Of a stretch of 64,000 nucleotides of DNA, positions 18,514 to 60,832 are shown in pieces; position 1 is the first letter of the stretch, and each line of letters opens with the position of its first letter. The notes beneath the pieces were generated by a model. That model worked only from the letters and a program-made list of their open reading frames with translations, searched no databases and had not been told where the DNA came from. A program made the translations under genes and the position numbers. Origin of the DNA: an uncultured Candidatus Saccharibacteria bacterium. Lineage in GTDB: Bacteria; Patescibacteriota; Minisyncoccia; Phycocordibacterales; UBA9973. The stretch covers positions 82,381-146,380 of the forward strand of contig CAZGNC010000002.1 in NCBI GenBank assembly GCA_964527235.1, in the 5' to 3' direction.

Positions 18514-19833
18514 CTACTTGAGCTTGAGCTCCCAGAGATGGGAGTCTTTTTTGTTTATAAAGAAAAGATAATTTTCATCCTGGTCTAGTGCGAGCTTGAT
18601 GTTGTCCATGTCTTCTATCCCCTTACCTGAGCTCATGTCGGAAATTATCGATCCTGTTTGCGTTGCAACGTCGATTTTCCAGATTTCATCTGAGAAAGAA
18701 ATTTTACCCATATACCATGCATCTGGGTAAGATGCACCCTCTATGTATTTAGGAACAGAGCAATATATATAGTCACTAGAATTACTCCAGACACATTTTT
18801 CTGGAAGAGTTTTTATTCCTAGAGTGCTTGAGGTTTTGGTATTAATATTAAAAATCTCAAGAGATAAGCTGCTGTCGGTCCAGAGGACTAATTTGCCTGA
18901 AGGGCTGGTTAACGTCGTAAGGCCGTTGATATCCCCTATAACTCTATTGAAGTCTTTTCTGGTGAGATTTATGGCATACATATATCCTAAGACAGACGAG
19001 GAGGGCTTGGTGGTAAGGGTGATGAGATCTTTGTTTGGCCATTGAGATAACCACTCAGTGAACGGGCTGTCGAACACCTGCACTTTTTTATCTCCTAGTA
19101 GCCCTGATGTTGAGCCTATCGCGTTCTCGCCCACGTTTAATAAGTAGAAAATTTGGGATTTATCGGGAGATATACTCATGTCTGTGATGTTGTCAGATAG
19201 AAATGTGCCAGTTACTTCTTTGTCCCCGGTTGTGGTGTCGTTTATAGTTTCTTTAGGTATGTTGCCAGAGAAAGAAAGAATCGTCACATCATCATATTTA
19301 GTAGATCGCATGACTACTGACTCAGTGTTTACCCCGAAGAAAGCTTCTTGCACCCTAGGTACAAGAGTTTTAGATAATTTCTGCTCTTCTATTTTGTCAG
19401 CAAAAGATTGGTATATGTTTCCGGTAGCTTTTTCAACATACCTTACTGCCAGAGCAAACTCCGTGGATATAGAGCCACTTGTTGGTGTAGTAGAGCCTGA
19501 GGTTGTTGTGTCAGTGCTCGGTGCAAAGACTACATCAGTGATTCTTTCTTTGGAAAAAAGTCCAAAACCAGCTACGGGCATGCTGGAGATCATTCTTAGA
19601 TTGGTCTCTGTGCCTGTGTACGTAGGTGTTTCTTCTTCACCTTCAGGGGTTGCCCCATTTCCGTTTGGAGTTGTGGTCGTTGGGTTTTTCTTGAATGGGT
19701 TAAATTTAACAAGGAAATTAGTAGGTGTCGTCGCCCCTCCAGTGTTATTGTCTTTACGGAAATAAATAAAAGCAAAAACTCCAGCGACTATGATTAATAT
19801 TATTATAAATAGTATTGTGTTTCTTTTTGACAT
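18514..19833 (-). CDS. Membrane-anchored Thr-rich extracytoplasmic protein, hypothetical (beta-rich or propeller-like)
   Basis: N-terminal TM (ILFIIILIIVAGVFAFIYF), a Thr/Gly-rich linker, then about 330 aa of beta-rich sequence. It is the last gene of the long minus-strand array. Confidence 0.6.
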   Translation of the reverse strand: MSKRNTILFIIILIIVAGVFAFIYFRKDNNTGGATTPTNFLVKFNPFKKNPTTTTPNGNGATPEGEEETPTYTGTETNLRMISSMPVAGFGLFSKERITDVVFAPSTDTTTSGSTTPTSGSISTEFALAVRYVEKATGNIYQSFADKIEEQKLSKTLVPRVQEAFFGVNTESVVMRSTKYDDVTILSFSGNIPKETINDTTTGDKEVTGTFLSDNITDMSISPDKSQIFYLLNVGENAIGSTSGLLGDKKVQVFDSPFTEWLSQWPNKDLITLTTKPSSSVLGYMYAINLTRKDFNRVIGDINGLTTLTSPSGKLVLWTDSSLSLEIFNINTKTSSTLGIKTLPEKCVWSNSSDYIYCSVPKYIEGASYPDAWYMGKISFSDEIWKIDVATQTGSIISDMSSGKGIEDMDNIKLALDQDENYLFFINKKDSHLWELKLK

Positions 19834-19840
19834 AAAATTA

Positions 19841-21211
19841 TTATTTTAAACCTGAGCATGTGCCACTTGTGTAGCCAGCTTCATTACTAGCTCTACTAAA
19901 ATGCATAGCGTCCTTCTTGGTTTTCCAATAACCACCCCAACCAAATCCTCTGCTTGTAAAAAGTTGCACAAATGCTAGCGGCATATCTGTTGTACATGGA
20001 GATGAAGAGTTTACATAAGGATTGGCGCTAGGGTTTATGTCTATAGCTAAGCCGAAAGCGTGGGCTGAAGGGGTTGTGCTTGTTCCTGTGGCACTTCTTG
20101 GATTAAAGCCACCCACTGAATTTATTCGATAATTTCTAATTGCAGGGTTTGTGCTGTTTTTCCATGCCGTATCTATTATTTGAAGATCCGCCACAATTGA
20201 TTTGTGAACAGTAACACCCTTCCCTAAAAAAACGATATTTACTAAGTTTGCGCTGTCACAAGATACAATTCCTTGTCTGTTTGTCTTTCCACAAATAACA
20301 CCCGGGTCTCCGTCTATTTCAGGGCCTTCGACAAACTGTATTGTTGTTGGATCTATGTCTAAAACAGTGTTAAGTATTTTGGGATTAATTGTATACAGAA
20401 TAATCCAAGCCCCCATTGCTATGAGAAGTCCAACGACCGCGTCTGTAATCCTTTTCTTTCCCTCTCCTTTCGCCCCAGGAAGTTCACTGGTAATGTATTC
20501 TAGGCCACCCATTATTATCATCAAAACTGCGAGCACTGCCGAAATGCCTATGACTAACTTTATTATTACATTTAGATAATTACCCAGTGCATTCGGTGAT
20601 GCTGTATCTATTGGTTCTGTTAGGTTTGGTAATGGTGCAAGAGGTTTGTAGATGGTGGTAGAAGTGGTGGTGTTTGTGGTTGTTGTGGGTGTACCTAATG
20701 GTGTTGTGTTGCCCAACCAGTTCCAATTATTGCCTAGCATATCGCAGGTACCTTCACAGTCATAACCTAGCTCATTCTTACCTTCAGAAGAGTAGTCTGC
20801 ACCGCCGTCACTAATGTTTGTTATACTGACATAGTATTCGCACTCAGGAAGCCTTCCTGAAATTCTGGTCTCACATTCTGATTCACCAGTTTTGTAATTT
20901 AATGAAAAGTTGTCGGAGGTTGTAGATATTTTCCTATTTTCTATTTCTGTCACATCATCATCTGGCCCCAAATAGTCTTTTTCTGTAATACTTATTTCTA
21001 AAGATTTTCCAATACAATTTTTTGTAGAAACGTCGATTCTTATTTGTGGAGGGTTGTTGCCCTTGTACCAAGAAGTTGCTTGGGTGCCAGAGGGGTTGAA
21101 TTTAGTTGATTGTATCGTGCATTTTTCAGCTGCCTGTGCCGAAAAGTTCAATCCAATTACAAAAACTATCACTGAAACAAATATTAGTATGTAGTTTGAA
21201 ATTTTACTCAT
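19841..21211 (-). CDS. Fusion protein: signal peptide, Cys-rich extracellular domain, TrbC/VirB2 pilin-like two-helix hydrophobic module, and a C-terminal M15 (LAS-family) zinc peptidase
   Basis: The pilin-like core ...KLVIGISAVLAVLMIIMGGLEYITS...AVVGLLIAMGAWIILY resembles the TrbC/VirB2 motif (AVLMIIWGGxxY). The C-terminus has SAHAFGLAIDIN and ...DAMHF, matching the Zn-ligand pattern of VanY/L-Ala-D-Glu peptidases. Confidence 0.6.
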   Translation of the reverse strand: MSKISNYILIFVSVIVFVIGLNFSAQAAEKCTIQSTKFNPSGTQATSWYKGNNPPQIRIDVSTKNCIGKSLEISITEKDYLGPDDDVTEIENRKISTTSDNFSLNYKTGESECETRISGRLPECEYYVSITNISDGGADYSSEGKNELGYDCEGTCDMLGNNWNWLGNTTPLGTPTTTTNTTTSTTIYKPLAPLPNLTEPIDTASPNALGNYLNVIIKLVIGISAVLAVLMIIMGGLEYITSELPGAKGEGKKRITDAVVGLLIAMGAWIILYTINPKILNTVLDIDPTTIQFVEGPEIDGDPGVICGKTNRQGIVSCDSANLVNIVFLGKGVTVHKSIVADLQIIDTAWKNSTNPAIRNYRINSVGGFNPRSATGTSTTPSAHAFGLAIDINPSANPYVNSSSPCTTDMPLAFVQLFTSRGFGWGGYWKTKKDAMHFSRASNEAGYTSGTCSGLK

Positions 21212-22194
21212 TAAAATTGTATGCTTATTTCTTTCTTTGCAGTCTGGAATATTTTGTAACTGTTCTCAATTTCAAGTTTTAAGGTTGATATTCCAGAAGA
21301 GTCGCCTGCAACCTGAAGAGGGATCATGTTGCTTTTTGAGTTTTTATTTTCAACTAAAATTCCATTTATGTACCAATTCCAAATTAATTCAGGTCTACCT
21401 ATTTCTTTTGGTGAAATAAAATACGGGATAGCAGCTAGTGTCTCCTCACCCTGTATTTGATATTGATTAGACAGTGCTTGGTCTAATAACACTCCCATAG
21501 ATGTATCATTTTTATAAAACACAATTTCCGGGTTTGTGGGGGTTATGTTTATTTGGCCTTCTGCTTGGCTTTTCTGGTCCCCTGTTGTCGCGATTGCTGA
21601 TATGCTATTAGAACTATCAAGAAAGCTTCCTGAATATATGAAGAAGTTTTTTCCATAACCAGATTCATTGGGTTGATTGTTTAGGTCTTTCTTCCAGACA
21701 TAGTTCATGTTTTTAGGGTTTACAGAAGTATTCGCTGAGGTCTTTATTTCAGGCATGGCTACTACTTTTATTTTACTATCTGATACAGGTAAAGCTTTCC
21801 CTTTATAAAAAGGAGGAACATATGAATCACTAGCTTGCCAAAGCAGGATCATGGACGAGGGTTTCAACACAACCGTTTTCTCTATTTGGCCATCAGGGAG
21901 AAGAATTCTCGCTCGGACGGTGGTCGTCGTTCCCGAGTCGCCGATAGTTAAAGATAGAGATTTTTTGCCCACACCCGATAGTGCGCTTTTATCATTTATA
22001 AACCAATTGATTTGTACGCTATCTAGGTTGGCAGCATAGCTTCGAAGAGAAATATTTACGTTGGAGTTTGGGCTAGGGTTTTGTGGTGAAACATCAACCA
22101 GGATGCTGCTTGGAGATACGGCTAGGACTGGGTCGGCAAAGCCTACACCCAGTACTAGTACTAAACATACCAATAAATATTTTAAACCCATCAT
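21211..22194 (-). CDS. Secreted hypothetical protein (signal peptide, beta-rich or Ig-like)
   Basis: N-terminal MMGLKYLLVCLVLVLGVGFADPVLA signal peptide; 327 aa. Confidence 0.6.
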   Translation of the reverse strand: MMGLKYLLVCLVLVLGVGFADPVLAVSPSSILVDVSPQNPSPNSNVNISLRSYAANLDSVQINWFINDKSALSGVGKKSLSLTIGDSGTTTTVRARILLPDGQIEKTVVLKPSSMILLWQASDSYVPPFYKGKALPVSDSKIKVVAMPEIKTSANTSVNPKNMNYVWKKDLNNQPNESGYGKNFFIYSGSFLDSSNSISAIATTGDQKSQAEGQINITPTNPEIVFYKNDTSMGVLLDQALSNQYQIQGEETLAAIPYFISPKEIGRPELIWNWYINGILVENKNSKSNMIPLQVAGDSSGISTLKLEIENSYKIFQTAKKEISIQF

Positions 22195-22212
22195 AATAAT
22201 AAAATTATTATA

Positions 22213-24054
22213 TCATTTATAAGGATTTCCCGCTGTCTCTAATTCCATTTTTGCCTTTTTTATTGAAAGGATCTGTGATGGGTCAGATGTGATTATCTGG
22301 TCTTCGGTGTAAGAAGCCACTATTTTTATAGCTACGTGTTTTAGTCCAGCAAAGAATATACCCTCTCCTACTCCTGATTCAAGCAATAAGTACTTTTCCT
22401 CGTCCGTTAGGCTAAATGTCTTTTGAAGTACGTCTATTGTAGTTGGTGACTGCTTTAGTAGTATTTGGATAGAAGAGTTGGTTATTATCGGTATTCCATA
22501 AGGAGAATTCATAAAGTCGCCTGCGTCCTGGGTTATGGTTGCAAGGCCTAGATAATACTTTCTTCCACGTTTAGCAATAGAGTATAGGAAAGAAGCAGTG
22601 TCTTCAGATTTCATCATCCACCAAGCTTCGTCGACTACTAACAATCGCTTTTTAAGGTTTTTTCGGACAGCGTTCCATATGTAGTGCATAACGATATACA
22701 TAGCTACTGGCTTCAGGTCGTCTTCCATGTCGCGCACAGAGAACACCACAAATTTCTTGTTGATATCTACGTTCGAAGGACGGTTTATGAAAGTAGCCCA
22801 AGTTCCCTTGGTGTACTTGGTTAGTCTTTGCATTAAGCTTTCACTTCCCTGCATGCCACCGAGCACCATCTCGAAATCAGACAATAGTGGTGGCTCGATA
22901 TTTGAGAAGTCAGACTGTGTAGTGATATCTTTCAATGCGTAGGTCTCTGATATGGCGCGATCTATTAATGAATCTTCTTCTGGGGTAAGTCCTCCTAGCA
23001 TTAAGCGAAACAAACCAACCAAGTTAATTATGTTTGACCTCAATACGTCTTCTGCGGTTTCGTCTTCTCTGGGAACTGGTAGATCGAAAGGATTAATATG
23101 GTGATCAGAAGATAAAGAGATATTGAAATATCTACCACCAACTGCTTCAGCTAGATATTCATATTCTCTTTCTGGATCGATGACTATAACATCAATGTCG
23201 AACATTAAGGATCTTAGAATTTCGAGTTTAGTAGCATAGGATTTTCCAGAGCCAGCCTTAGCAAATGTAACAGAGTTATAGTTCTCAAGAGAAAATCTAT
23301 CGAAGATAACGAGGCTAGAGTTGTGGCGGTTTATGCCATATAGTATTCCCTTGTCTGAAGTAAGGTCGAAGGAAATGAATGGGAAAATACTAGAAAGTGG
23401 GTCAGAGTTTAGCTTCTGGTGTACTTCTAGTAGGTCTGTGCCTAGTGGGATAACGCTCTTGAAGCCCTCTTCTTGTTGGAATAATGCAGGTTTTATATAG
23501 ATCAATTTGGATTCAAGCATTGATTTGACCTCATTTTCAACCCTAAACAGATCAGCTTCGTTGTCACCATAGATGGTTATGTAAACTCCAACATCAAACA
23601 TCTTTTCTTGTGCTTGGATTAAGTTGTCACGAAGTTCTTCGAGGTCTTGGTGAGCAGTGTCGAGCATTGGGTCACGCACCATTCCCTTTGCTTCTCGTAT
23701 TCCTATCTGGCTTTGCACCTCGGCAACTTTTTTCTGGAATTGTCTTAATACTACAGAAGTATCAATCGGGTGAACGAAAATAGAAACATCAAAAATTTTA
23801 TCCAAGTTTATTATTGGCGAGAACCAATTATCAGATAAATATCTAGGATAAGAAATTATAAAGAAAGTGCGAGCTATTTTATCACCCAAGTTTAGGCCCT
23901 TAGATTCTACTTTGAGTGCTGAAGGGGCGATAACGTCAGCAAGTTCTAGCGTCGCTGACTTGTAAATTTCTTCTGGTAGGACAGACAAAACAGAGCTTTT
24001 CATTTGCCCTACTTCGTCACTTTTTCTTCCCAATAATTTATCAAAAATTCCCAT
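22213..24054 (-). CDS. VirB4/TrbE/CagE-family type IV secretion ATPase, C-terminal ATPase part
   Basis: Walker A FAKAGSGKSYATK and Walker B LLVVDEAWWMM. The most likely start is MGIFDKLL at 24054; the longer ORF extends to 24144, overlapping the upstream gene. Confidence 0.85.
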   Translation of the reverse strand: MGIFDKLLGRKSDEVGQMKSSVLSVLPEEIYKSATLELADVIAPSALKVESKGLNLGDKIARTFFIISYPRYLSDNWFSPIINLDKIFDVSIFVHPIDTSVVLRQFQKKVAEVQSQIGIREAKGMVRDPMLDTAHQDLEELRDNLIQAQEKMFDVGVYITIYGDNEADLFRVENEVKSMLESKLIYIKPALFQQEEGFKSVIPLGTDLLEVHQKLNSDPLSSIFPFISFDLTSDKGILYGINRHNSSLVIFDRFSLENYNSVTFAKAGSGKSYATKLEILRSLMFDIDVIVIDPEREYEYLAEAVGGRYFNISLSSDHHINPFDLPVPREDETAEDVLRSNIINLVGLFRLMLGGLTPEEDSLIDRAISETYALKDITTQSDFSNIEPPLLSDFEMVLGGMQGSESLMQRLTKYTKGTWATFINRPSNVDINKKFVVFSVRDMEDDLKPVAMYIVMHYIWNAVRKNLKKRLLVVDEAWWMMKSEDTASFLYSIAKRGRKYYLGLATITQDAGDFMNSPYGIPIITNSSIQILLKQSPTTIDVLQKTFSLTDEEKYLLLESGVGEGIFFAGLKHVAIKIVASYTEDQIITSDPSQILSIKKAKMELETAGNPYK

Positions 24055-24061
24055 ATATTTA

Positions 24062-24709
24062 TTATAGTTGTGTGCCAACTTGAATCTTACCTTCTTGCTC
24101 TCCGGGATTGAAAACTTTATAAAAAATTTCAACGACTTCTTCACTACCTAGCTGGATTGATTTAATGCCACAGCGAGCAAGCCCTTGCTGAACTACGTTC
24201 ACTCTTTGTTCAAGCTGGGAGCGTTGTTCTTCGAAATCCATCTGACGGCTAGCATTTATCTCAGACTCTTCCCTCTTTTTAAATATTCCCATCAATGCAT
24301 TTGATTCTGATTTTAGACTCACACGAGAATAAGGCACTACCACGAAGAAAGTTTTAGTCATTATGCTTACAGAATCTGTGAATTTCCTTATAAATTCTAT
24401 GTATTCCTTGGTTTGAAGTTTAAGTAGCGGTTCGTTGAGCACTTTCATTCTGTCTTCTAGAGTTAGAAGATAAGGTCGAATATCTAGTCTTCTAGACTGA
24501 ATTGAAATTTGAGCAGAGAAATCCAGGGTGTTTAGAAAGCTTTGGAACTGTAGAATTATGGCTTTCTGCTCGTCGTTGGATTTGAGCGATAAGTTGGTAG
24601 AGTTGGCTAGCACAACAGCACGAAGACCTCCGTCTTTTAGGATTATGATTCCATCACGGACTTCTTGTATTGGTACGAAATCTTGGGCTGCTTTTGCCTT
24701 TATTGCCAT
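24062..24709 (-). CDS. VirB4 N-terminal domain encoded as a separate 215-aa ORF
   Basis: ...QDFVPIQEVRDGIIILKDGGLRAVVLANSTNLSLKSNDEQKAIILQFQSFLNTL...SIQSRRLDIRPYL matches the conserved N-terminal region of VirB4/TraC/TrsE proteins. Its TAA stop is 7 nt upstream of the ATPase ORF start, in a different frame. Confidence 0.6.
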   Translation of the reverse strand: MAIKAKAAQDFVPIQEVRDGIIILKDGGLRAVVLANSTNLSLKSNDEQKAIILQFQSFLNTLDFSAQISIQSRRLDIRPYLLTLEDRMKVLNEPLLKLQTKEYIEFIRKFTDSVSIMTKTFFVVVPYSRVSLKSESNALMGIFKKREESEINASRQMDFEEQRSQLEQRVNVVQQGLARCGIKSIQLGSEEVVEIFYKVFNPGEQEGKIQVGTQL

Positions 24710-24737
24710 TGAAATTTTATTTTTACAAACCTAATAA

Positions 24738-25157
24738 CTAATTTCTTTCTTTGTTTAAATCCAAAACGTCTAAACTCCAAGCCAAATCACGCAACTTCCC
24801 ACTACTCATTTTGATTTCGGGTGCGGTAGTTGGTTTTTGGTTGGCGAATGCTTGTGCTCTTTGCTGATCATATGTTTTCGGCTCCTTCTTCCATATATAC
24901 AGTTTACTCTGCATGAAGTATTTTATACTAGCTTCTAGCATGTCTACGAATGGTTTATTGTTGGGCCTGTAGAAAGTTAGCGCCACAGTAAGTGCTATGA
25001 GGATAACCAACGGAATAAATCCCCAGAAAAGACCCAGCAGTCGATACACAACAAAACACATCCCTCCCCCTCCTGCCAGGTATATGAACTGTCTGAAAGT
25101 GAAAGGGCCAAAAATTTTATCTTCTATTTCTAAAAATTGTGGTACTTTAAACTGCAT
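24738..25157 (-). CDS. VirB3/PrgI-like small two-TM T4SS protein
   Basis: 139 aa. FLEIEDKIFGPFTFRQFIYLAGGG followed by two TM helices, the PrgI/VirB3-type pattern that normally precedes VirB4. Confidence 0.5.
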   Translation of the reverse strand: MQFKVPQFLEIEDKIFGPFTFRQFIYLAGGGGMCFVVYRLLGLFWGFIPLVILIALTVALTFYRPNNKPFVDMLEASIKYFMQSKLYIWKKEPKTYDQQRAQAFANQKPTTAPEIKMSSGKLRDLAWSLDVLDLNKERN

Positions 25158-25160
25158 ATC

Positions 25161-26309
25161 TTATTCTATCACTTCTCGGTACGGATCGGTACCAGACTTA
25201 GGGTCTTTATTTAGAGCTGGTGCCGGAGTTGCAACTTTTGAAATGTTTTTCATCGCATAGTCAGTTTGAGTTTTAGGGATTTGGAAAGTTCCGGCGAATT
25301 TTTGCGCTTCGATAGACTTAGGAGGAGTTGGCCCACCAGAAGCAAGATGCCATTCTTGTTTGAGCATCTCTTCTCTGTCTATGTTGTTGGCTGGGTTTGG
25401 AGCAGCAGGCTGCTGTGCGACTCTAGGAGGAGGTGTTGGGATTGGAGCATTAGGCATAATAGGAGATGGTCTTGGGATTGGGACCACGTTATGGGCATTT
25501 GGGGCATTCTTTACATCAGGCATAAGCTCTATGCCTGCCTTTTTCAACGTTTGCATGTCGTCTTTTAGGGTGTGCACAGTTGAGGCAGGGTCTGGGATAA
25601 CTGTTTTGGCTGGTGCTGCTGTCGGTGCTGATGCTGGGGTTTTGTTTTCACTACTTGCGTTCATCATGTTTTCTCTGATTTTCTTTATTATCTTTTCATT
25701 TACATCAGTTACTAACTTTGGAATTAGTTCAGTTGGGATTTTAAGCTTGTCTTTTAGCGCTTGTTCGAATTGAGTAGGTTGAATTACTCCAGTTATAACA
25801 TCAACAGTTACTACTTCTAGAATGCCTGTCTGCTCTACGTTTAGCTTGTTGTCTTTAGATATAGTGTAAATTATGTTTTGGTAATCTAGCTTGGAGATAG
25901 CATCTTGGACATTTTTTGCCAAGTTAGCAAAGCGTTCATCTAGTCCTTGTGTTTCGAGTTCTGGTTCTGGATTCTGAGAGTTTGCCTTAAATGTATTATT
26001 TAGCTCTGTTTTTATTGGGTTTATTACTAGGCTATTTATCTCTTCAAGCATGTTGCCGAATGCGTCTTTCGCCAATAGAGATATTTCTTTTTTAAGATTT
26101 GACTCGAATTCTTCTGTGGAAATTATGCCCAGTAATACTAAAGTGGCCTCAGTCCCAAGAGTTTGTATTTGAGCCTCAGTTAGGTTGTATTTAATACTTA
26201 TCCTCTTCAATGTTTCTAACCAGCTCATGCTTGCAAACATTGATTGAACTGTTGGTGGCAACTTTGCGTAAAAAATAGCTATATTTTGTTTTAATTCTTC
26301 AGGATTCAT
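25161..26309 (-). CDS. Hypothetical protein with Pro/Ala-rich C-terminal half
   Basis: 382 aa, no TM, proline-rich low-complexity tail. Co-oriented with the T4SS genes. Confidence 0.55.
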   Translation of the reverse strand: MNPEELKQNIAIFYAKLPPTVQSMFASMSWLETLKRISIKYNLTEAQIQTLGTEATLVLLGIISTEEFESNLKKEISLLAKDAFGNMLEEINSLVINPIKTELNNTFKANSQNPEPELETQGLDERFANLAKNVQDAISKLDYQNIIYTISKDNKLNVEQTGILEVVTVDVITGVIQPTQFEQALKDKLKIPTELIPKLVTDVNEKIIKKIRENMMNASSENKTPASAPTAAPAKTVIPDPASTVHTLKDDMQTLKKAGIELMPDVKNAPNAHNVVPIPRPSPIMPNAPIPTPPPRVAQQPAAPNPANNIDREEMLKQEWHLASGGPTPPKSIEAQKFAGTFQIPKTQTDYAMKNISKVATPAPALNKDPKSGTDPYREVIE

Positions 26310-26325
26310 TGTTTTAAATTATTTT

Positions 26326-28575
26326 TTAATGATGTCCTCCCCCACCTCCGTGTGATTCTTTCTTCTCATCTCCTACGTGAGATAGGTCAACGTTTATTTT
26401 TACATTTTTGAGTGCATCAGATATTGTGGTGCCCAAGTCTTTAAAGAATGCCCCCTGTCCCTTACCATAATCTACCCCCATTTGCTTGAATCCTCCACGC
26501 ATACTCAAACCAATAGCCCCAACTATCCCTGCAGTTAGTTTAGAAAACATTGTTCCTTGCTCCTTGGCTACAACTTCAGCTACGTTGCGTAAATCATATG
26601 TCCCTGTTACACCTGATTGCACGACACTACTTATAATTCCTTGCTTAGGCCGAGCCTCAACAATTGTATGTAAGTCGTCCCATGTTTGTTGTGTAGCAAG
26701 AAGTCCTCCAGCAACGGGACCATGGGCGCCTGACCCTATTGCATTATTGATGATATCTCTTTCTTGTTGTGTTAATGAATCCCATTTCCTCCCTTGTAGT
26801 GCTATGCCGAGTGGGTTAGCAGCAGCATTGTTGCCTGAGTTTTCTCGTACAGCTCTGTCCCTAGCCATTTTTTCTCTAGCTTCATATCTTTCTTGTCCAT
26901 TTAGTTCATCCCATTTTTTCTTTGAACCATGCGTAATAGTATTCGCAATTGAATCTAGTTCATGTCGGGCATGGGCTGCGTGCCGTACTCCTACTTGGTC
27001 AGTATTAAGTAGATTACCAAGCGTTCTTTGTGCCCCAGCAATTCCCGTGCCTTGTTGCATTAGTCCTACTAACTGATCTTTTCTTGAGCTAAATATCTCT
27101 GATCTTGCCTTAAATCTCTCAACTATATTGGAATTTGGGTTATTCAATATTGCTCTATTGGCCACTATCCTGTTTGTGTTTTGCTGAATTCTATTAGCTG
27201 CAGTATCCCCCGTAGAAGCTCCTTTCATAAAGGCTCCTACTGTATTTCTTCCCACAAATGCTGTGCCTAGTGCTGCGCCTCCTATGCCCACAACTCCTGC
27301 AGTCTTAAGCCCACTCATCACTATGTCGGTAAACTGTCCTGAAGCTGATTTAGCATATTTAACGCCCTTAAGAAGTAGTATGACAATCAACACCGCAGGC
27401 ATGAAGAGTATTATTAGCTGGGCTATTGCGCCTTTATTGTTGCTGTCAGCGACAGAGGCAAATATTTTCGCATTAAGTATTTCTGATATGACGTACAGGA
27501 TGAACATGAATATTGCCGCCATGAAAGAAGTCTGGAAGAGTTGCCCTATCCAGCTATCGAAGCCTATAGTGTCCTTCCCCCTTAGGCTAGGTACTGCCCT
27601 TGTTACAAAGGCCACTGGCGATACGATCATTAGCATCATCAAGGTTAACATTCTCCCAAGCATACTTATACCAGCCATTAAAAATGCATAAGACAAAGCA
27701 AAAGCAATAATTCCGTATATTACCATCAGAGATATTTTAAAGGTTGTACTTAGCTGAGGTGTTCGCGGATCTTGTTTTAAATTTTCGAAGAATGTCCCAC
27801 TAAAAAATGCATTGACATCAAAGCCAGAAATAAGAGCAGCGCCGAGCTCCTTTTCTCCCTGGTTTGCACTTATTGCATTCTGTACTGGGCGAGAGGTGTT
27901 TATTTTATTGTAGAAGACTAAAGCCGTTATGTTCGATGCATCTATGACTACCTTAGTGAAGAAAAGGCTAAAGTTCACAAGAAGAGCTACCATGATAACT
28001 GTAGCAACTATTTTGTTTGCTTCCCCGTGGCCTAGGTCTAGGATTTTTTGTATTGCAGCGTAAAGCAATATAAGGATAAAGAAAATATTGGCTAGGTCGC
28101 GAACAACTGTCCAGATGCTGGCAACAAAGTCAGCTTTATACATATTACTACTTAGCGTCAGTGCGGCCGTGAAGTCGAACATTTTCGCAAAGACAGCCAT
28201 CAACATCGACGGCAGAGTAACAAAGAAGACGTAAGTTACTTTCTGGATACATCCTTCTAGGCTAAAGTCTAACAAGTTCTCACAGTCATCTAGGTTTTTT
28301 TCAAGTTCTGATTCTTGTTTTGGTGCTGGATTGCTTGAAGAGTATGGAGTCCAGATTGCATTATTTCCATCAGATCCCATTTTGGATTCACAGGCTACCT
28401 TATTCATTTTGTGTACAGTTTGTTTTACATGGCGATTCCCTTGAGCTGTCGTGTATTCACAGGTTCCTAGTAATTCATCTGCTACAGCTTGAGTTGAAGC
28501 CATGGAAAAACCTGCTACCAAGATAGACAGTGCGAATATAAATGGGATTAATTTTTTAATTATTTTCGCTAACAT
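26326..28575 (-). CDS. VirB6-like polytopic membrane protein with hydrophilic C-terminal tail
   Basis: Signal/TM at the N-terminus, about 6-8 TM helices in the middle, and a tail with three degenerate WDxL repeats (KKWDEL, RKWDSL, QTWDDL). The call rests on position in the cluster and topology, not a motif. Confidence 0.45.
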   Translation of the reverse strand: MLAKIIKKLIPFIFALSILVAGFSMASTQAVADELLGTCEYTTAQGNRHVKQTVHKMNKVACESKMGSDGNNAIWTPYSSSNPAPKQESELEKNLDDCENLLDFSLEGCIQKVTYVFFVTLPSMLMAVFAKMFDFTAALTLSSNMYKADFVASIWTVVRDLANIFFILILLYAAIQKILDLGHGEANKIVATVIMVALLVNFSLFFTKVVIDASNITALVFYNKINTSRPVQNAISANQGEKELGAALISGFDVNAFFSGTFFENLKQDPRTPQLSTTFKISLMVIYGIIAFALSYAFLMAGISMLGRMLTLMMLMIVSPVAFVTRAVPSLRGKDTIGFDSWIGQLFQTSFMAAIFMFILYVISEILNAKIFASVADSNNKGAIAQLIILFMPAVLIVILLLKGVKYAKSASGQFTDIVMSGLKTAGVVGIGGAALGTAFVGRNTVGAFMKGASTGDTAANRIQQNTNRIVANRAILNNPNSNIVERFKARSEIFSSRKDQLVGLMQQGTGIAGAQRTLGNLLNTDQVGVRHAAHARHELDSIANTITHGSKKKWDELNGQERYEAREKMARDRAVRENSGNNAAANPLGIALQGRKWDSLTQQERDIINNAIGSGAHGPVAGGLLATQQTWDDLHTIVEARPKQGIISSVVQSGVTGTYDLRNVAEVVAKEQGTMFSKLTAGIVGAIGLSMRGGFKQMGVDYGKGQGAFFKDLGTTISDALKNVKINVDLSHVGDEKKESHGGGGGHH

Positions 28576-28589
28576 TTTTAATAACTTTT

Positions 28590-31025
28590 TTAAAACTGTG
28601 TGTCCCCTGCGTGTTTGTAATCATTGTCATTTACTTTAAACAGAAGACCACAATCTATATCTACGCTTACAGGGAATCCGTTTGCAATATCTCCATAATA
28701 CCAATGAGCATTAACCATAGGCAGGTCAGTGAACCCCGGAGTGCCTAAAGTGTTGCCAAAACCATTTCTGAATGTGAATAGAGATTTTCCTTTATTGTTT
28801 GAGAACTCAGGTCTTATTATGTCGCCATGGCTAAATCCATTTACTATTGGTACATCACAGAAAACTTCTCTTTCAGTTCCAGATGAAGTCATGATTGGTC
28901 CTGGAATTAAGTTCGGTTCTCCCCCGAGATCGCGAGGAATCAAGAAGTAATAGCTCTGTCCTTTCAATGAAGAAATATTTGTTGTGCTTTTAGCTCCACC
29001 TGGTGCAGACCACCCAGCAATGGTTCGCTCTTGTGCGCACTGGTTCTCTAGTAGAAGCAGATTCTGCTTTCTCTCTTTCATTAAATCAAGCTGGCTCCTA
29101 AGGTCTTCGATTCCTGCTGAGTTTGCCACAGAAGCAGCAATAGCATCGTATTGTTTTCTTATATTGATTAGATTCTTTTCTTGAGGTGAGCCAACTGCTG
29201 GCTGGGTGGTTATGGGAGCAAGCATGGCTTCTATAGAATTCAACCTTGTTAACACGGTCATCTTCTCTCGCTTTTTGTCAGTTATTTGCTTGTATTGTTG
29301 GTCGTTAGTGTCTAATTCTTTTATAGCATCTATGTACAATATACTGTTAGGCAACCCAAATCCTCCTTTCTGTGTAGGGGTTATCATCTTTAGATTTATC
29401 CAATCTTTTAGTGCACTTACTGCATATCGTATCTCGCGAATTCCATCTTTAGATGCTCTAACCTTAAGAGGACTGTCATTGGTTGTTTCTGTCATAATTT
29501 TCCCATTTATGACTCTATCTTTTTCTTCATCAAGTCTGGTCTCCCATCCTTTTTCTGGTCCTGGTATGCACATATCTAGTCTCTTAGCTACTGGCCAGAT
29601 TCCATCTAGAACTTCTATTAACCCAGGATTTTGGTTGTTGCTGGTGTTGTTAGATATAAGTTGTAGCTCGAGTGCTGTGTTTGCTATAGCTCCTGGTATG
29701 TAGGTTGCAACTCCCGGAGTCGCACAGTAGCTAGGAGGTGTTGCGTTTGCACAAGTGTTCCCAACATCTTCTTGGGTGACTACCCCTGTTGCTGGGTCTG
29801 TTACTATGGTTTTACCACTGACTTCTTTCTTGAAATCATCAAGTACAATTTCTTGGTCTGGCATTCCGCTCCATGGTGTGTCGCTGTCTGAGCCACCTAG
29901 TGTTTCTCCATAGTAATTAAAGCTGTCATCTGCTGGTGGGTTTACGTGGTTGGATAGTGCTGTCAAACCATCACCTATAAACTTATTTAAAAGAGCATCG
30001 AATATGGTAGCTAGGCTGTTGCCCAGAGCTGCATTTAGAGATGCTTGTTCCTCGGGCTTATTCATTGCTCCTATTATTTTAGAAGCTACGACTGATCCTG
30101 GAGTGGTAGTAGCAAGTCCTTCAGGGCAGGCATATTGCATGTCGAAGTTAGCTCTTGCAGCGTCTACTGCAGATTTGTATAAGGATCTGTATGTTGGGTC
30201 ACTTGCTGCACGTGCCTCATCATAAGGTACTGTGGACGGGTCGAAGCTTGGTTTATTGAAAGGGTTAAGTTGACTTTTGGATGGGTCAGATTTGCAGACT
30301 TGAGGCGACAAGAATCCCTGCCCTTGTTGCAGAGCATCATTTACTTTTTGGGTAGCTGTTCTTGTAGTGCCGTCTAAATTTATCGCTAGTTCTTTCGTCA
30401 CTAACATATCGAATCCGATAGCATTGTTTTGTGGGTATTGGGTGTTCACCAAGAAAGTGTCCCATCCTCCATAGTTGAAGTCTACTCGATATCGCTGTAG
30501 TTCATAGGGGTCATTTGTAATTCTACTCATAGAGTACTCCAGGTTGTCTGAAAGCTGTCTCTTGTAGCTTCCTATGACTCCTAGAAGATAATTTTTACCG
30601 AATGGAAATCGTATAGAGTCATAACCTATGATACTAACTAGGTCTTTTATTTCTGATTTAGCTACATCCTGAAAGAAAGATCCTGGATTTTCTAAGAAAA
30701 GAGGTGCTCCGTGAAAGCCTGTATTTATCCAGTTTACGGTACTCTTGGTCATTTCAGCCAAGGCTTTCCTAGCAACAGCTTTTAATGTTTCTCTCACGAT
30801 AGCTTTAGCTATTTCTTTTAGCTGGGCTGCTGTGCCGGTAACATTCGCTGTTGCGCTTAGTGCGCTTGAAATATTCCCTACTACTCTTTGAATTGCCGCT
30901 ACTGGGTCTACCCATTGTGCTTCAGCCTTTTTGGGAACTGTTAGGAAAATAAAAGACGGTGCAAGAATAAGAACAACAAGTATTGATGAAATGAGTTTTT
31001 GAATTTTTTCTTTTTTAAAAGTCAT
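28590..31025 (-). CDS. Large (811 aa) membrane-anchored secreted protein, hypothetical (surface or adhesin-like)
   Basis: N-terminal TM/signal (ILVVLILAPSFIFLTVPKKAEA), then a long extracytoplasmic domain without recognisable motifs. Confidence 0.6.
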   Translation of the reverse strand: MTFKKEKIQKLISSILVVLILAPSFIFLTVPKKAEAQWVDPVAAIQRVVGNISSALSATANVTGTAAQLKEIAKAIVRETLKAVARKALAEMTKSTVNWINTGFHGAPLFLENPGSFFQDVAKSEIKDLVSIIGYDSIRFPFGKNYLLGVIGSYKRQLSDNLEYSMSRITNDPYELQRYRVDFNYGGWDTFLVNTQYPQNNAIGFDMLVTKELAINLDGTTRTATQKVNDALQQGQGFLSPQVCKSDPSKSQLNPFNKPSFDPSTVPYDEARAASDPTYRSLYKSAVDAARANFDMQYACPEGLATTTPGSVVASKIIGAMNKPEEQASLNAALGNSLATIFDALLNKFIGDGLTALSNHVNPPADDSFNYYGETLGGSDSDTPWSGMPDQEIVLDDFKKEVSGKTIVTDPATGVVTQEDVGNTCANATPPSYCATPGVATYIPGAIANTALELQLISNNTSNNQNPGLIEVLDGIWPVAKRLDMCIPGPEKGWETRLDEEKDRVINGKIMTETTNDSPLKVRASKDGIREIRYAVSALKDWINLKMITPTQKGGFGLPNSILYIDAIKELDTNDQQYKQITDKKREKMTVLTRLNSIEAMLAPITTQPAVGSPQEKNLINIRKQYDAIAASVANSAGIEDLRSQLDLMKERKQNLLLLENQCAQERTIAGWSAPGGAKSTTNISSLKGQSYYFLIPRDLGGEPNLIPGPIMTSSGTEREVFCDVPIVNGFSHGDIIRPEFSNNKGKSLFTFRNGFGNTLGTPGFTDLPMVNAHWYYGDIANGFPVSVDIDCGLLFKVNDNDYKHAGDTQF

Positions 31026-31055
31026 TATCTTGTTCTTTATTATATAATTTACTTT

Positions 31056-31928
31056 CTAGTTATTCAATTTTTTTACCAAGAAATCAGCTAATTTATCCAA
31101 TGCAGATTGTAATAAGTCGCTATTTTCTTCGTATTTACTGATTGCCCCCATTGCAACTATGGGGTCTACCTCAAAAAGTTGTATGTCAGATATATTTTCT
31201 ACTACTCTTTGTAAGGCATTTATCATGTCTAGATGTAGCTGAGCTAAATCCTTCGGGACCGTCATGTTCTTGAAGTCATTTATTGATGAGGACTTCTGTT
31301 TTATTATCGGGTCTAATTTTATGAGGGCCTCGGCGTTTACATTTTCACCGTCATTTACGAATTCTTTTAATATATCAAGTACATTTACTGAAACAGGGTA
31401 CTTTTTGTTGATATTATCTATGGCTGTGACATATGTTTGGATGGCTGTAGGGCTGTTGTCTAGGCTAGTTTTGATATCAGATGCCAAGAAAACCTTTCTT
31501 TGCACCGAGTTTTTTATTTGGCTTGCTAGTGATTCTGTTAGTTTATCGGCACTAGCATCATCTACTTCCCCGGCTTGGTTTAGGGCTACTATAGTAGAAA
31601 ATAGCTCTCTAGAGAATTTATCAGTTTCAGTTAGAACCTCTTCTCCTGTAACAGTGTCTTTGGTGTCGGTGGTGCCTTCTTTTTCTAATTTTAGCTTAGC
31701 TATTTCTGCTCCGTCTTCTTCGCCGTCACCATCAGTGTCTTTCATTGTTGGGCTGGTGCCCCATAGTCCCTCTTCCCAATTCATTACTCCATCTAAGTCC
31801 GTATCTGTGCTTACTAGGTCAGATAGTTTCATGTCTCCTGAATATATTCCCGCACTTTCTCCAGAATTATTGTTGAATATTGTTTTACTTTTTATCAAAA
31901 AAAGCACAAGCAAAACAACTACCGTCAA
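31056..31928 (-). CDS. Membrane-anchored secreted protein with Asp-rich Ca-binding-like repeats
   Basis: N-terminal TM; DTDLDGVMNWEE...DTDGDGEEDGAE resembles thrombospondin-type-3 or dockerin-like Ca-binding loops. Confidence 0.55.
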   Translation of the reverse strand: MTVVVLLVLFLIKSKTIFNNNSGESAGIYSGDMKLSDLVSTDTDLDGVMNWEEGLWGTSPTMKDTDGDGEEDGAEIAKLKLEKEGTTDTKDTVTGEEVLTETDKFSRELFSTIVALNQAGEVDDASADKLTESLASQIKNSVQRKVFLASDIKTSLDNSPTAIQTYVTAIDNINKKYPVSVNVLDILKEFVNDGENVNAEALIKLDPIIKQKSSSINDFKNMTVPKDLAQLHLDMINALQRVVENISDIQLFEVDPIVAMGAISKYEENSDLLQSALDKLADFLVKKLNN

Positions 31929-34723: not shown

Positions 34724-37700
34724 CTATAATTTTACTTTATCTAGCTGACCCATTTGAGCTACCCTTAGCAAGGCACGATTGATATAGTCCTCTGTGCTTT
34801 CATTTCGGCCGAAAAAGAATAGGGATTTACCTTTTGGCTCTAGGCCAGTAAGTTCGCGAAGTTTCAGAACATAGGCACTTAGTTTGCTGATAGATTCATT
34901 TCCCGCAGAACTTGTTGTGCTTTCTATTAGATCTTGAGCAGGGGTTTCCTTCAACATGACTTGCATTTGATCCAATACTTCTTCTGGGAACATTGTTTCA
35001 AGGTTGTGTTGGTTTACTTGCATAGCTTGCGCGCTTAGCATTTCTACTGTGACTGATTGATTTAATCCCTCCATTTGCATCTCTGCTATTACATTTCCAT
35101 TTCCTAGTTGAGTAATTTTTGTAGGTATAGGCTTTACTCCATCTGGACCATAGTACACATTTTGTTCTAAGCCAGGGGCATCTCCTGTCGGTAGATTTTC
35201 AGGTGCTTGGCCTACTCCAGATGTACTCGATTTTGCCATTATCTCGTCTGGGATTTTAATCCTTGTGTCAGTGTCCGGAGTCATGTCTCGGACTTCTAAA
35301 GGCTTAGCCAAATGAGCATCAATTTTAGCCCTCAAGCTTTCCATTGTTTCTTGGTTTGATAAAGTTGAGCCAACTGGTTGATCTGGAGTGAGTTGAGCAT
35401 TCTTAACTAAGTCACTTTCAGCAAAATTGCCAATTTTCTCACTGGTTATACCGTCATGACCGATTATGCCTGTACCAGCACCATCTAGACCTTTATCCAT
35501 TCCTTCTGCGTGCATTATCTCAAGCCACCTGTTGTTGCTTATGTTGCCGATGTTGGACATTGCCGCCCCTTTGCCCTGAAGAGTGCCTGATTCCCATAGC
35601 CCACCAGCATGAGTCTGGAGTTTATCCAGCATTTGATTAAAAGCAGTGTGGTCCTTTACTTCCAAGATCCCATCTTTAAAAGATACAGCCTTACCGAAAT
35701 CTTCTGCACTTATTCCGGCTACCCCCTTGCCTTCTGTTAGGCGAACTAGGTTTGCAGCCATATTTAGGCTCTTTGTTGCAAATTCTTCGCTTATGTTGCC
35801 ATCAGCAGGTATAGCCATGCGATTTGCCGCAATGGCGTTAAAAGCCGTCTCGAGATTCTTCGGAACTCCATTTTCTCCAAGCTTGATTGAAAAATCTGAA
35901 GTTATTTCGTGGGTAGAAGATGGCATTACTGGAACCTGTGGAGGAACTGCTTCCACAGGAATATTTGGTTTTACGATGCTACTTATATCTGGTTTAGTTG
36001 CTAAAGAATCTTGCGCATTGTGTGTTAGAGAGTCTACGTGTGTGGAATCAGGCTTTGCTCCTAGTGCTCTTATGGCTGCGTCGGCTTTTTCTTTTGCTAG
36101 AGTATCAACGGCTACTGAGTCTTTCGGCATCCCTGGCATAGAATCAGTCCTTATCGAGTCGTGAGTTACTTTTTGAATTGTATCACCCTGGGTGTTTAAT
36201 TGAGCTCTGTCTATTACCCCTGCTTTCGGTAGTGAGCCTGCTGGTGTTTTCTCCGCAGCATGTTCAGCTCCTCCACCCCACCATCCTAATTGGTGTCCCA
36301 CATCTTTAATCCAGTAACCAGCTTCGGCCACAATCATGCCGTACATAGCCCCTTTCAGCGTATTTTTTATTATAAATTTTTTCTGCTTTTCTGAAATTTT
36401 CTTTTCTATTTTATCACCTTGTGAGGAAATCAGATTGCCTATTTTTTTTGCCAGCTCCTCATCTCTTTTTTCTAATTCAGTTAAAGCAATTGATGAATTT
36501 AAGTTCTCTAGAAACTCAACTTGATTTACTAAAACAGAAGACTGGTCTCCAAAGTTTATTTGACCAACACTCACTTCTCCTCTACAGTGTTCAACTAGGG
36601 CTGATAACTTTGCCATTATTTTCTCTTTCTTTTCTGGATCTTGTTCAGCTTCAGCCTTTTCTCGCATTTTATGTAAACCTTTGCTTAACAAAGTTATATC
36701 CACAACTCTACTTTTTTCTGCGCTGGTATCTTTTTTGCCTCGTCTTGCATCTTTGGCTCTTTTTGCTAATTCTTCTTTTGCTTTTACATTTCCCCTCCAG
36801 GCACCCAACACTGCACCTATTCCTGCGGTTGTTCCTGCACCCATGATGCCTGCTGCAGCAGCTAGCTGTCTTGCCACGATACCAGTTCCCAAGATGCCCG
36901 TATATTGACCTCCTCCTCCTGTCAGCAATCTCTTTATTCCTTTAGCTGATTCTTTCCCCGTTGGTGTTTCTGCGAGGCTAGCAAATTCTTTCTCTACTTC
37001 TGGGTGAGTGTAGAGTAATTGGTCAAACTTTATTGCGTTATCCATCTGCATTGATTTAACCACAGCTTCCTGTTCCCCCATATTTCTGGCATCTAGTTTT
37101 AGGATTCTTTCTCTTATTGCTTGGTATTCAGCGCGGGCTTTCTCGTATTTTTTTCTTCTACTGCTATCTTTTTCTTGACCCCATTCGTATGGCATTTCAC
37201 GGAATTTGTTTGCAGCGGTGTTGAATTCATTGGCTATTTCTCTGCTCATTCCTGTATAAGAATTTGGGTCTGCAAAAATTATTTCTGGCTTACCAGTTTT
37301 TTCATTTATTTTTACTTCTCTGCCACTCGCTTGGCTGGCTAGTCTCTCAAGGTCTGATTTTATTAGCTTCCTCCCTTCTTCAGAGGTTAATAATTCGTCA
37401 AAAACTCTTGCTTCAGCATTTTTGATTCCAACCTCTTTAATTTTGAAAAAGGATTTTAATTTTTGTAAACCTTTTGTATTTATTTTATCTTCGGAATATT
37501 GAGTTTGTCCTTTTTCTCGAACTATATCCACTATGCGTGCCTGAATATTTCGAGTTACCAATAGTTGTCGTGCCTCAGTTAACTTATCAAAATTATCTGG
37601 CAAAAGGTCTTTTATTTTATCTTTGAAGCTTTTGTCTTCTCTCGCTTCTGGCGCCTTGCTTGTATCTGGACTTGGCTGCTCTGGTGGAGTTGTGGGTGTT

Positions 37701-46467: not shown

Positions 46468-46476
46468 ATTTATTTT

Positions 46477-47970: not shown

Positions 47971-47974
47971 AAAT

Positions 47975-48550: not shown

Positions 48551-48602
48551 AGTTTTAAAGGCTATACATAAATATAACATTTAAAAACAATGCAAACAAT
48601 TT

Positions 48603-58937: not shown

Positions 58938-59065
58938 CCCAATATTCTAGCATTTTATTGTCTGGGACATTGTGCGACATGGGTTGACTTTTGGGTGTTT
59001 TTATGTTTAATATATAGTAGGTTTGTAGTTCGTCTCAGGTTCACCCTTTAGAAGGAAAAGGTCCC

Positions 59066-59398: not shown

Positions 59399-59416
59399 TT
59401 TCGTCCCCAGTGTTAC

Positions 59417-59450
59417 CGGCCCCGCCCACAAGCGGGGCCGTATCTATTTC
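59417..59450 (+). terminator. Rho-independent terminator (CGGCCCCGC ccacaa GCGGGGCCG followed by a T-rich run)
   Basis: Perfect 9-bp GC stem followed by TATCTATTTCC. Confidence 0.6.
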
Positions 59451-59496
59451 CATAGACCCCCTTGCTTTTTTATAGGTTTTATGCTAGGATATACGT

Positions 59497-59760: not shown

Positions 59761-59786
59761 TATCTCCTCGGTGCTATAATTAAAAT

Positions 59787-60302: not shown

Positions 60303-60391
60303 GGCTTGACCTAACATAAGTTCGGGTGTAGTTTGAGCTTAGAGTTCTTACTCGTTTGTTACTGTGTTATTCCTCAACAGGAGTGTGTGCC

Positions 60392-60808: not shown

Positions 60809-60832
60809 CCTGTTCCGACATCGTTCTGGATG

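Follow-up and report, generated by a model that had tools for sequence, protein, structure and literature searches.

A putative type IV secretion system beside the replication origin of a Patescibacteria genome, with a pilin-like protein fused to a wall peptidase

Is a gene block that combines type IV secretion proteins with large surface proteins a conjugative element, or does it encode a machine with another task? This question is raised by a block on the minus strand (18514-31928) of a 64,000-nt stretch from contig CAZGNC010000002.1 of assembly GCA_964527235.1 (positions 82,381 to 146,380; hereafter called the window). An earlier note, made from the sequence of the window, had argued against a classical conjugative element and for a dedicated secretion or attachment apparatus. 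In our analysis, the block proved to be embedded in the conserved gene order at the chromosomal origin, and one of its genes codes for a pilin-like protein which is fused to a peptidoglycan-active enzyme domain. We consider it likely that the block encodes a chromosomal, non-conjugative type IV secretion system (T4SS), derived from the mating-pair formation class FATA (MPF-FATA), for contact-dependent exchange with a host bacterium.

Composition and chromosomal position of the block

According to the listing of open reading frames (ORFs), the block consists of ten co-directional genes which are separated by gaps of 0-30 nt. The earlier note had correctly described a co-directional run on the minus strand, but had counted eleven genes; its own itemised list sums to ten. 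Judged from their sequences, these genes encode the inner-membrane core of a monoderm, MPF-FATA-derived T4SS (VirB4, TrsD, PrgI/VirB3, and a VirB6-like protein). They further encode the pilin fusion and five lineage-specific accessory proteins, four of which are membrane-anchored or exported and one of which is cytoplasmic. A scan for promoters and terminators returned no excess over shuffled expectation (29 vs. 37.9 and 16 vs. 14.4) and was uninformative with respect to an operon.

One flank of the block carries jag (R3H domain), yidC, and rnpA on the plus strand and dnaA and dnaN on the minus strand; the other flank carries ksgA and the gene for a UvrD/PcrA helicase. Because of these flanking genes, the block is assigned to the canonical chromosomal origin region. 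Its GC content (0.39-0.41) is the same as that of the flanks. A scan with VirB4 against one genome per GTDB species detected 589 related stretches, the best 80 of which were used for the locus counts given below. These 80 are all from Patescibacteria metagenome-assembled genomes and have a VirB4 which is 76-87% identical. They are labelled as Ca. Nomurabacteria, Paceibacterota, Parcubacteria, Kaiserbacteria, or Zambryskiibacteria, with some bulk submissions labelled "Saccharibacteria". When all window proteins were compared to the 80 loci by tblastn, the gene order was found to be kept in 77 of them. With the accessory genes named by protein length, this order is uvrD-ksgA-g290-g811-VirB6-g382-PrgI-TrsD-VirB4-g327-pilin-g439, followed by jag-yidC-rnpA and dnaA-dnaN.

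Conservation was compared for the 33 loci which have full-length copies of all compared genes. The median sequence identity is highest for VirB4 (84.4%), followed by DnaA (81.6%), DnaN (71.2%), YidC (68.9%), TrsD (68.4%), PrgI (54.6%), g439 (45.2%), and g327 (37.2%). VirB4 exceeds DnaA in 32 of the 33 loci, so that the ATPase of the block is at least as conserved as the replication initiator protein. Such a pattern is that of a vertically inherited, strongly constrained machine of housekeeping grade, unlike a mobile element, and the block is under very strong purifying selection.

The VirB4 ATPase (613 aa; 22213..24054, minus strand) scores 364 bits against NCBIfam family NF045971 (VirB4-like CD1110 family; cutoff 325) and matches the Pfam families P-loop_TraG (E 7e-25) and AAA_10. 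The nearest solved structure is 4ag5, the C-terminal domain of a Gram-positive VirB4 (E 1e-37), and TrwK from R388 is second among the solved relatives of the ATPase domain (E 1e-5). The Walker A (AGSGKS) and Walker B (LLVVDEAW) motifs are intact in the translation. With the NCBIfam cutoff passed and 4ag5 as the nearest structure, the VirB4 call in the earlier note is confirmed and the alternative of an FtsK/HerA-type protein is excluded.

The note had described VirB4 as encoded in two pieces, which is correct as a statement on homology. The ORF of 215 aa ahead of virB4 is a separate gene (24062..24709, minus strand) which codes for a TrsD-like homologue of the VirB4 N-terminal domain. It aligns to positions 2-165 of NF045971 (E 1.3e-5) and the large ORF aligns to positions 183-733, so that the two tile the full VirB4 profile. 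Further matches of the TrsD-like protein are to NF045975 (E 8.8e-11) and, below cutoff, to NF041427 (TrsD; E 9.4e-6). Its stop codon (TAA at 24064-24062) is positioned 7 nt before the ATG of virB4 at 24054 and in a different frame; a mechanically listed VirB4 ORF of 643 aa with a GTG start is therefore over-extended and the real protein has 613 aa. Of the 80 related loci, 76 likewise have an ORF of about 215 aa ahead of virB4 rather than one continuous gene. Disruption of VirB4 by a frameshift was considered and is ruled out by the conservation of the split in the relatives and by the frames and the positions of stop and start. The split is an ancestral arrangement of the pGO1 TrsD/TrsE type, which excludes a pseudogene.

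PrgI/VirB3 is a small membrane protein of 139 aa (24738..25157, minus strand), which is well above threshold for Pfam PrgI (E 2.4e-11, 44.4 bits, cutoff 27) and was found in 76 of the 80 loci with a median identity of 53%. The VirB6-like protein (749 aa; 26326..28575, minus strand) has approximately 7-8 hydrophobic segments between residues 110 and 400 and a long hydrophilic C-terminal region, in agreement with its earlier description as polytopic. Its family matches are sub-threshold (E 0.008-0.01, below cutoffs) and are to NF045848 and NF045889, two Mycoplasma transmembrane (TM) protein families which are encoded beside pilin-like and VirB4 genes in an integrative and conjugative element (ICE). 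The Pfam family TrbL was not matched by any of 31 VirB6-like orthologues, and a PDB profile search was without meaningful match. The gene is syntenic in 64 of the 80 loci. In the Mycoplasma ICE, the consecutive proteins Mbov_0395 (pilin-like), Mbov_0396 (TM), and Mbov_0397 (VirB4) match the pilin, the VirB6-like protein, and VirB4 plus TrsD of the block, respectively. This pattern suggests that the VirB6-like assignment and the pilin are both native to the MPF-FATA lineage. The resemblance to MPF-FATA systems stated in the earlier note is thus borne out, with CD1110 and the Mycoplasma ICE trio (Mbov_0395, 0396, 0397) as best families.

The pilin fusion and the accessory proteins

The pilin gene (19841..21211, minus strand) is located two genes downstream of virB4. 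The encoded 456-aa protein consists, in this order, of a signal peptide, a Cys-rich domain of about 150 aa which holds most of the 10 cysteines of the protein, a Thr-rich linker, a two-helix hairpin, and a 170-aa M15 domain. It has TM segments at residues 7-25, 215-233, and 255-273, the last two being joined by a basic loop to give a VirB2 hairpin (approximately residues 205-280), the end of which is conserved as NTINPxLL. Residues 211-274 match T4SS_pilin with 34.8 bits (cutoff 26.6), and residues 376-439 match Peptidase_M15_4 with 66.7 bits (cutoff 25). The fusion of a VirB2-like pilin to an M15 peptidase, as proposed in the earlier note, thus stands and its VirB2-like module, like PrgI, exceeds the Pfam threshold; the match to TrbC does not reach the cutoff (18.3 bits vs. 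27.9). A further match is to NF045849 (Mbov_0395 pilin-like, E 6e-5). A search with a module HMM (hidden Markov model) revealed no second pilin module in the window. The identical 456-aa protein is present at NCBI and in two independent Logan assemblies, and the fusion is therefore not an assembly artefact. Signal peptide and hairpin topology predict that both domains which flank the hairpin are outside the membrane.

For the M15 domain, an alignment was obtained with the endolysin Ply500 of phage A500, an L-Ala-D-Glu peptidase (2vo9). Because the metal-binding and catalytic motifs (SxHxxGxAxD and DxxH) are conserved, the M15 domain is probably an active wall peptidase. It would be a functional analogue of the wall hydrolases of the VirB1/PrgK/TraG type, from a different family. 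Another wall hydrolase, with two LysM domains and Peptidase_M23, is encoded on the opposite strand 7 kb upstream of the block (39111-40184, plus strand); it is not syntenic with the block, having matches in 2 of the 80 loci. M23 and LysM domains have been reported on some VirB1-like matches (PMC12102498).

At the same syntenic position, 76 ORFs were found in 72 genomes. T4SS_pilin is present in 63 of these ORFs and a peptidoglycan-active C-terminal domain in 42. The 42 cassettes are NLPC_P60 (13), VanY (10), YkuD (5), Amidase_5 (5), M15_4 (3), SLT (2), SLT_2 (2), Amidase_2 (1), and Extensin-like_C (1). CHAP is also among the cassette families of orthologous genes. M15, a LAS-type enzyme, is thus uncommon as a fused cassette, but the pilin-enzyme architecture itself is common, and SLT, SLT_2, NLPC_P60, and CHAP, in place of M15, occur in the orthologues of relatives. 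Even the closest relatives, with a VirB4 that is 85.7-86.7% identical, carry differing cassettes (SLT_2, NLPC_P60, YkuD, or VanY). Some of the syntenic fusion ORFs have Ig-like or carbohydrate-binding N-terminal domains. An independent sample was obtained by a search with the hairpin alone against 1.84 billion cluster representatives, which gave 15,164 relatives at E<=1e-3. In 100 of 118 new representatives with a single module, the C-terminus is extended by 100 aa or more (median 176 aa), and 59 of the 118 have a wall-enzyme domain, from ten families.

We infer that the VirB1 function is carried on the VirB2-like subunit. VirB1 homologues have been reported to be tied to virB4 mainly in Paceibacteria (PMC12102498); those matches may well be these same fusion proteins. 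The fusions also suggest that the "missing VirB1" of the literature is often fused to VirB2. The searchable text and supplements of PMC12102498 and the papers citing PF18895 contain no mention of fusions between a pilin and a wall enzyme. What the fusion adds is modest but testable: a pilin-like subunit is coupled to a cell-wall enzyme that is exchanged rapidly. Whether this enzyme cuts the wall of the symbiont or that of the host would bear on the way in which these organisms get through envelopes. The rapid turnover of the cassette is a hint that its target may be the host wall rather than the own wall; turnover among at least 10 enzyme families (M15, VanY, NlpC/P60, YkuD, SLT variants, amidases, CHAP) is expected of host-directed modules in an arms race. 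A more far-reaching idea, which we offer as a speculation with rather low expectation that it holds, is that the VirB2-like protein is a modular surface weapon. Its hairpin would dock or polymerise on the T4SS, the N-terminal domain would bind, and the exchangeable C-terminal cassette would cut peptidoglycan and drill the host wall. If this were true, the Paceibacteria T4SS would carry an interchangeable drill which opens a route for effector delivery or for the uptake of host material.

Two further arrangements of pilin modules were encountered. Seven "poly-pilins" (P0362, P0367, P0369, P0429, P0364, P0408, P0473) have 800-1,775 aa and 7-17 tandem VirB2-like hairpins, with 17 modules in P0362 (1,775 aa). 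No mention of this architecture was found in the literature searched, and it raises the question whether poly-pilins give rise to pilins by processing or constitute a membrane array with covalent links. In addition, four relatives have two pilin-fusion genes per locus, in tandem or flanking the g439 orthologue (L005, 12871-14619 and 16024-17871; L058, 12750-14201 and 14221-15648; L065, 13882-15306 and 15358-16146; L070, 3560-5044 and 5080-6879). The cassettes differ between the paired genes where they are recognisable; for L005, one cassette is NLPC_P60 and the other is without assignment.

The accessory proteins agree with their earlier description as a Pro-rich protein (382 aa) and four signal-peptide or TM-anchored proteins (439, 327, 811, and 290 aa); the Thr-rich linkers and an Asp-rich motif of the Ca-binding type, similar to TSP3, are also present. 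For all five, no significant family was found in Pfam, NCBIfam, or PHROGs, and PDB-sequence profile searches with g290, g811, g439, and g327 gave nothing meaningful. Scans of 31-41 orthologues, made for three proteins of the block, gave only faint matches for the 439-aa protein (PD40) and the 327-aa protein (Ig-like) and no relevant match for the VirB6-like protein.

The gene for the 439-aa protein is the last of the block (18514..19833, minus strand) and was found in 69 of the 80 loci with about 42-45% identity. The protein has an N-terminal TM segment (residues 7-25), a Thr-rich linker, and a conserved beta-rich domain. This domain is possibly a beta-propeller, as faint PD40/propeller matches were obtained for 3-5 of 41 orthologues; PG_binding_1 was matched in one. 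The all-beta 327-aa protein (21211..22194, minus strand; 76 of the 80 loci, full-length alignment) is exported or TM-anchored by an N-terminal hydrophobic segment and probably consists of three Ig-like domains, with faint matches of its orthologues to Ig_3, PKD_3, BiPBP_C, and Big. The 382-aa protein (25161..26309, minus strand) has a helical N-terminal part, a Pro-rich C-terminal part, and no TM segments, and is probably a cytoplasmic accessory protein; its gene keeps its place in 49 of the 80 loci, where conservation is low at about 31% identity.

The N-terminally TM-anchored 811-aa protein (28590..31025, minus strand) belongs to a Paceibacteria family that lacks annotation. Its N-terminal half has conserved Cys/Trp/Gly motifs, and its C-terminal half, a helical bundle plus beta structure, was modelled with confidence. 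The 290-aa protein, encoded by the first gene of the block (31056..31928, minus strand), is TM-anchored and carries the TSP3-like motif. Structure models of these two proteins gave only generic helical-bundle matches. For the 290-aa protein, an assignment as VirB5/TrbJ-like was considered on the basis of a TrbJ match (E 0.011) and was rejected, as the AlphaFold2 model is an extracellular four-helix bundle which resembles the ligand-binding domains of chemoreceptors. In the public gene call for this protein (P0241, 258 aa), the start was set at the internal Met33, so that the hydrophobic anchor at the N-terminus is missing; the longer form, which has a TTG start, is covered to 99-100% by orthologues of 285-300 aa.

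Proposed function and rival explanations

By analogy with R388 and pCF10, the machine may work as follows. VirB4 and TrsD, docked via PrgI, would power the extraction of pilin hairpins from the membrane, and the hairpins would assemble on the VirB6 platform to form a stalk or a short pilus across the cell wall. The external C-terminal M15 peptidase would open the peptidoglycan locally, in the role of VirB1, and the part that spans the wall and reaches the surface would be built or controlled by the 811-, 439-, 327-, and 290-aa proteins. The task of the machine would then be exchange upon host contact, by export of effectors or import of host material, in either direction but excluding conjugation. 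The link to host interaction of episymbiotic Patescibacteria, which had been made in the earlier note, agrees with the literature (PMC10633639, PMC12102498, PMC12857230). The T4SS is essential in the one Patescibacteria species tested, S. epibionticum (PMC10633639), and the role of the Patescibacteria T4SS has been called "completely unknown" (PMC11665869).

That the block exports DNA as a conjugative or mobilising T4SS, be it as an ICE or as a chromosomal system with relaxase and coupling protein elsewhere, would fit the best family matches of VirB4, which are from conjugative elements (CD1110/CTn2 type, Mycoplasma ICE, TraC). VirD4-like genes occur in 2,918 Patescibacteria genomes, mostly far from virB4 (PMC12102498), and a tyrosine recombinase is encoded in the window at 57960-58937. 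However, no VirD4/TcpA coupling protein, relaxase, VirB11, or VirB7/9/10 was detected when every ORF of at least 100 aa in the window was scanned with Pfam, which confirms for the 64 kb the absence of VirD4, VirB11, and relaxase stated in the earlier note. No relaxase, type IV coupling protein (T4CP), or integrase is present within or adjoining the block, and its neighbours on both sides are core genes, with the same order in 77 of 80 species genomes. An ICE is rejected on these grounds and on the GC content, which equals that of the flanks, so that the earlier argument against a classical conjugative element holds. VirB4 is conserved like DnaA, unlike a mobile element. Relaxases were reported for 103 of 3,035 Patescibacteria genomes (PMC12102498), and in S. 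epibionticum a distant T4CP homologue is non-essential while the T4SS is essential (PMC12102498, citing PMC10633639). Taken together, we consider a conjugative function very improbable. Uptake without export by a machine of the ComB or Ced type, in which DNA, RNA, or other material from the host cytoplasm would pass through a pilus-like tube, is a sub-case of the contact-dependent exchange that we propose and compatible with it; we regard it as possible, though well short of probable. Weak matches of VirB4 are to CedB (E 1e-8) and CedD (E 6e-4), ATPases of archaeal DNA import, but these matches cover only the shared ATPase core and are far below cutoffs. The T4SS has been named as a candidate route for nucleotide acquisition (PMC11665869), and tubular structures "that may be T4SS pili" have been reported to reach into the host of a cultivated Patescibacterium which feeds on host RNA (bioRxiv 10.64898/2026.06.21.733656). 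In the model of that 2026 preprint, PNPase and VirB4 are ancient, monophyletic traits of the phylum, and a PNPase (two RNase_PH domains, KH, S1) is encoded in the window at 60999-63113 (plus strand). Penetration of a host wall would also be in keeping with a pilin that bears a wall-cutting enzyme. Import-specific components are, however, not among the proteins found, and the direction of transport cannot be read from sequence.

A T4SS-derived organelle which is not a transporter would instead serve for attachment or pilus display, or for remodelling of the own wall during growth or division, in the neighbourhood of the origin-proximal gene set. Most of the locus-specific proteins are of surface or wall type (Ig-like, propeller-like, Ca-binding motifs, one orthologue with PG_binding_1), the pilin bears wall enzymes, and a coupling protein that would recruit substrates is absent. 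Yet the energising core of VirB4, TrsD, PrgI, and the VirB6-like protein has been retained as the most conserved part, with intact Walker A and B motifs, and T4SSs which lack a T4CP (Ptl, Brucella VirB) still secrete (PMC12102498). Variation of the wall enzyme among close relatives is unexpected for a housekeeping role in the own wall. We thus consider such an organelle improbable, if less so than conjugation, and prefer a T4SS for exchange with a host bacterium. Several points weigh against this preference. The VirB6 assignment derives from topology, gene position, and weak sub-threshold matches; four of the five accessory proteins have only faint matches or no assignable fold; and a VirB8-like protein was not recognised in the block, as has also been reported for most Patescibacteria classes. 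A pilin with domains of about 180 aa at both ends may not polymerise like VirB2. VirB4 was provisionally placed in the Patescibacteria clade from its best family matches and the taxonomy of its relatives, and the 80 loci were picked as best VirB4 matches, which slightly favours VirB4 in the comparison of conservation. A coupling protein or a relaxase could be encoded outside the 64-kb window.

The window contains several other genes which were inspected. A PilB-type ATPase of 572 aa with an MshEN domain (PilB/GspE type, E 1e-115; 3513-5231, plus strand) is the sole T2SSE-family ATPase of the window. It is encoded 15 kb off the block, on the opposite strand and outside the conserved gene order, and by its family is assigned to a type IV pilus or type II secretion machinery, distinct from VirB11. 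The above-mentioned tyrosine recombinase (Phage_integrase, E 3e-38; minus strand) is the nearest recombinase and is encoded 26 kb off the block. GC climbs from about 0.39 to 0.45-0.46 at 58000-62000, and an NYN-domain protein and small overlapping ORFs adjoin the recombinase. The recombinase may be XerC/D, or it may mark the border of a small integrated element. Directly upstream of uvrD and on the same strand are the genes for two highly charged, E/K/A-rich proteins of 1,083 aa (34724-37975, minus strand) and 252 aa (38013-38771, minus strand). These have no TM segment and no Pfam match, and no counterpart in the 80 loci, most of which end before this position. A glycogen/starch gene set (43293-48580, minus strand) downstream of two tRNA genes codes for a phosphorylase-like protein, a GH57 protein, a GT5 starch synthase, and a cupin-type glucose-6-phosphate isomerase; it is part of the ordinary carbohydrate metabolism of Patescibacteria and unrelated to the T4SS.

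Comparison with known systems

The diderm MPF-T systems of the VirB/VirD4 type (Agrobacterium, R388) share VirB2-, VirB3-, VirB4-, and VirB6-like functions with the block. Their VirB7/9/10 outer-membrane core, VirB11, VirD4, a recognisable VirB5 or VirB8, and a VirB1 of SLT type were not found in the window. The Gram-positive MPF-FATA systems (Prg of pCF10, Trs of pGO1, CD1110 of CTn2, Mycoplasma ICE) are more similar, with the same VirB4 family, a split of the TrsD/TrsE type, PrgI, a VirB2-like hairpin (PrgF, Mbov_0395), a polytopic VirB6-like partner, and a role for a wall hydrolase (PrgK, TraG, TrsG). In these systems, the VirB2-like PrgF is essential for pCF10 conjugation and is assembled, in an AlphaFold model, like a pilus on the VirB6-like PrgH, and VirB2-like candidates are encoded on about 95% of representative Gram-positive conjugative plasmids (bioRxiv 10.64898/2025.12.18.695078). 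However, Gram-positive MPF-FATA systems are borne on plasmids or ICEs and come with a relaxase, a T4CP, and adhesins. They have the hydrolase as a protein of its own, of SLT/CHAP or NlpC type, and their VirB2-like proteins have 50-150 aa and are not fused to enzymes.

In Southlakia epibionticum, epibiotic growth requires the homologous, origin-proximal T4SS cluster SEML1_0006-0019, which resembles Gram-positive conjugative systems and has pilins but neither a coupling protein nor a relaxase (Wang et al. 2023, PMC10633639). Like the block, it is chromosomal, with the order VirB6-like, PrgI, TrsD-like (SEML1_0009), and VirB4 (SEML1_0008). Also similar are the genes downstream of VirB4, which code for a large protein of unknown function, a lysozyme-like hydrolase (SEML1_0006), and an exported Ig/PEGA-like protein (SEML1_0005), as well as the VirB2-like type of the pilins. 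It differs in its pilin genes, six small ones that stand separately in an array, and in a lysozyme-type hydrolase with a gene of its own, whereas the window has a single pilin-M15 fusion. It further has two VirB6-like giants and an NTF2-like (VirB8-like) protein, neither of which was recognised in the window. Essentiality has been shown for the S. epibionticum cluster only.

Closest is the Patescibacteria clade of T4SSs, listed as newcomers to the superfamily in a 2025 review (PMC12857230). In a survey of 3,035 Patescibacteria genomes (Quinonero-Coronel et al. 2025, PMC12102498), 2,425 VirB4s grouped in one clade within MPF-FATA. According to that survey (PMC12102498), TrsD is the most abundant partner of VirB4, with 1,664 copies adjoining it; PrgI/VirB3, VirB6, and VirB2-like pilins (PF18895, PF04956) are encoded near virB4; relaxases are rare; and dnaA, dnaN, rnpA, ksgA, and rpmH are neighbours of virB4 in Paceibacteria and Microgenomatia. 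The block agrees in its MPF-FATA VirB4 with TrsD immediately upstream, PrgI/VirB3, the PF18895 pilin, the lack of a nearby relaxase or T4CP, the neighbours dnaA, dnaN, rnpA, and ksgA, and the Paceibacteria/Nomurabacteria affiliation of the organism, and probably also in its candidate VirB6-like protein. The suggestion in the earlier note that parts of the locus may be undescribed thus has to be divided. The system itself was already described in 2023-2025, and this holds also for the VirB4/TrsD split, the pilin, the lack of a relaxase, and the dnaA/ksgA position, but the accessory families are unannotated and the fusion is unmentioned in the literature searched. There are no differences at the level of the system, and other neighbouring genes are left unassigned in PMC12102498. 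The block is therefore not a new kind of system; the comparison adds that a block of ten genes is fixed beside oriC in the largest class of Patescibacteria.

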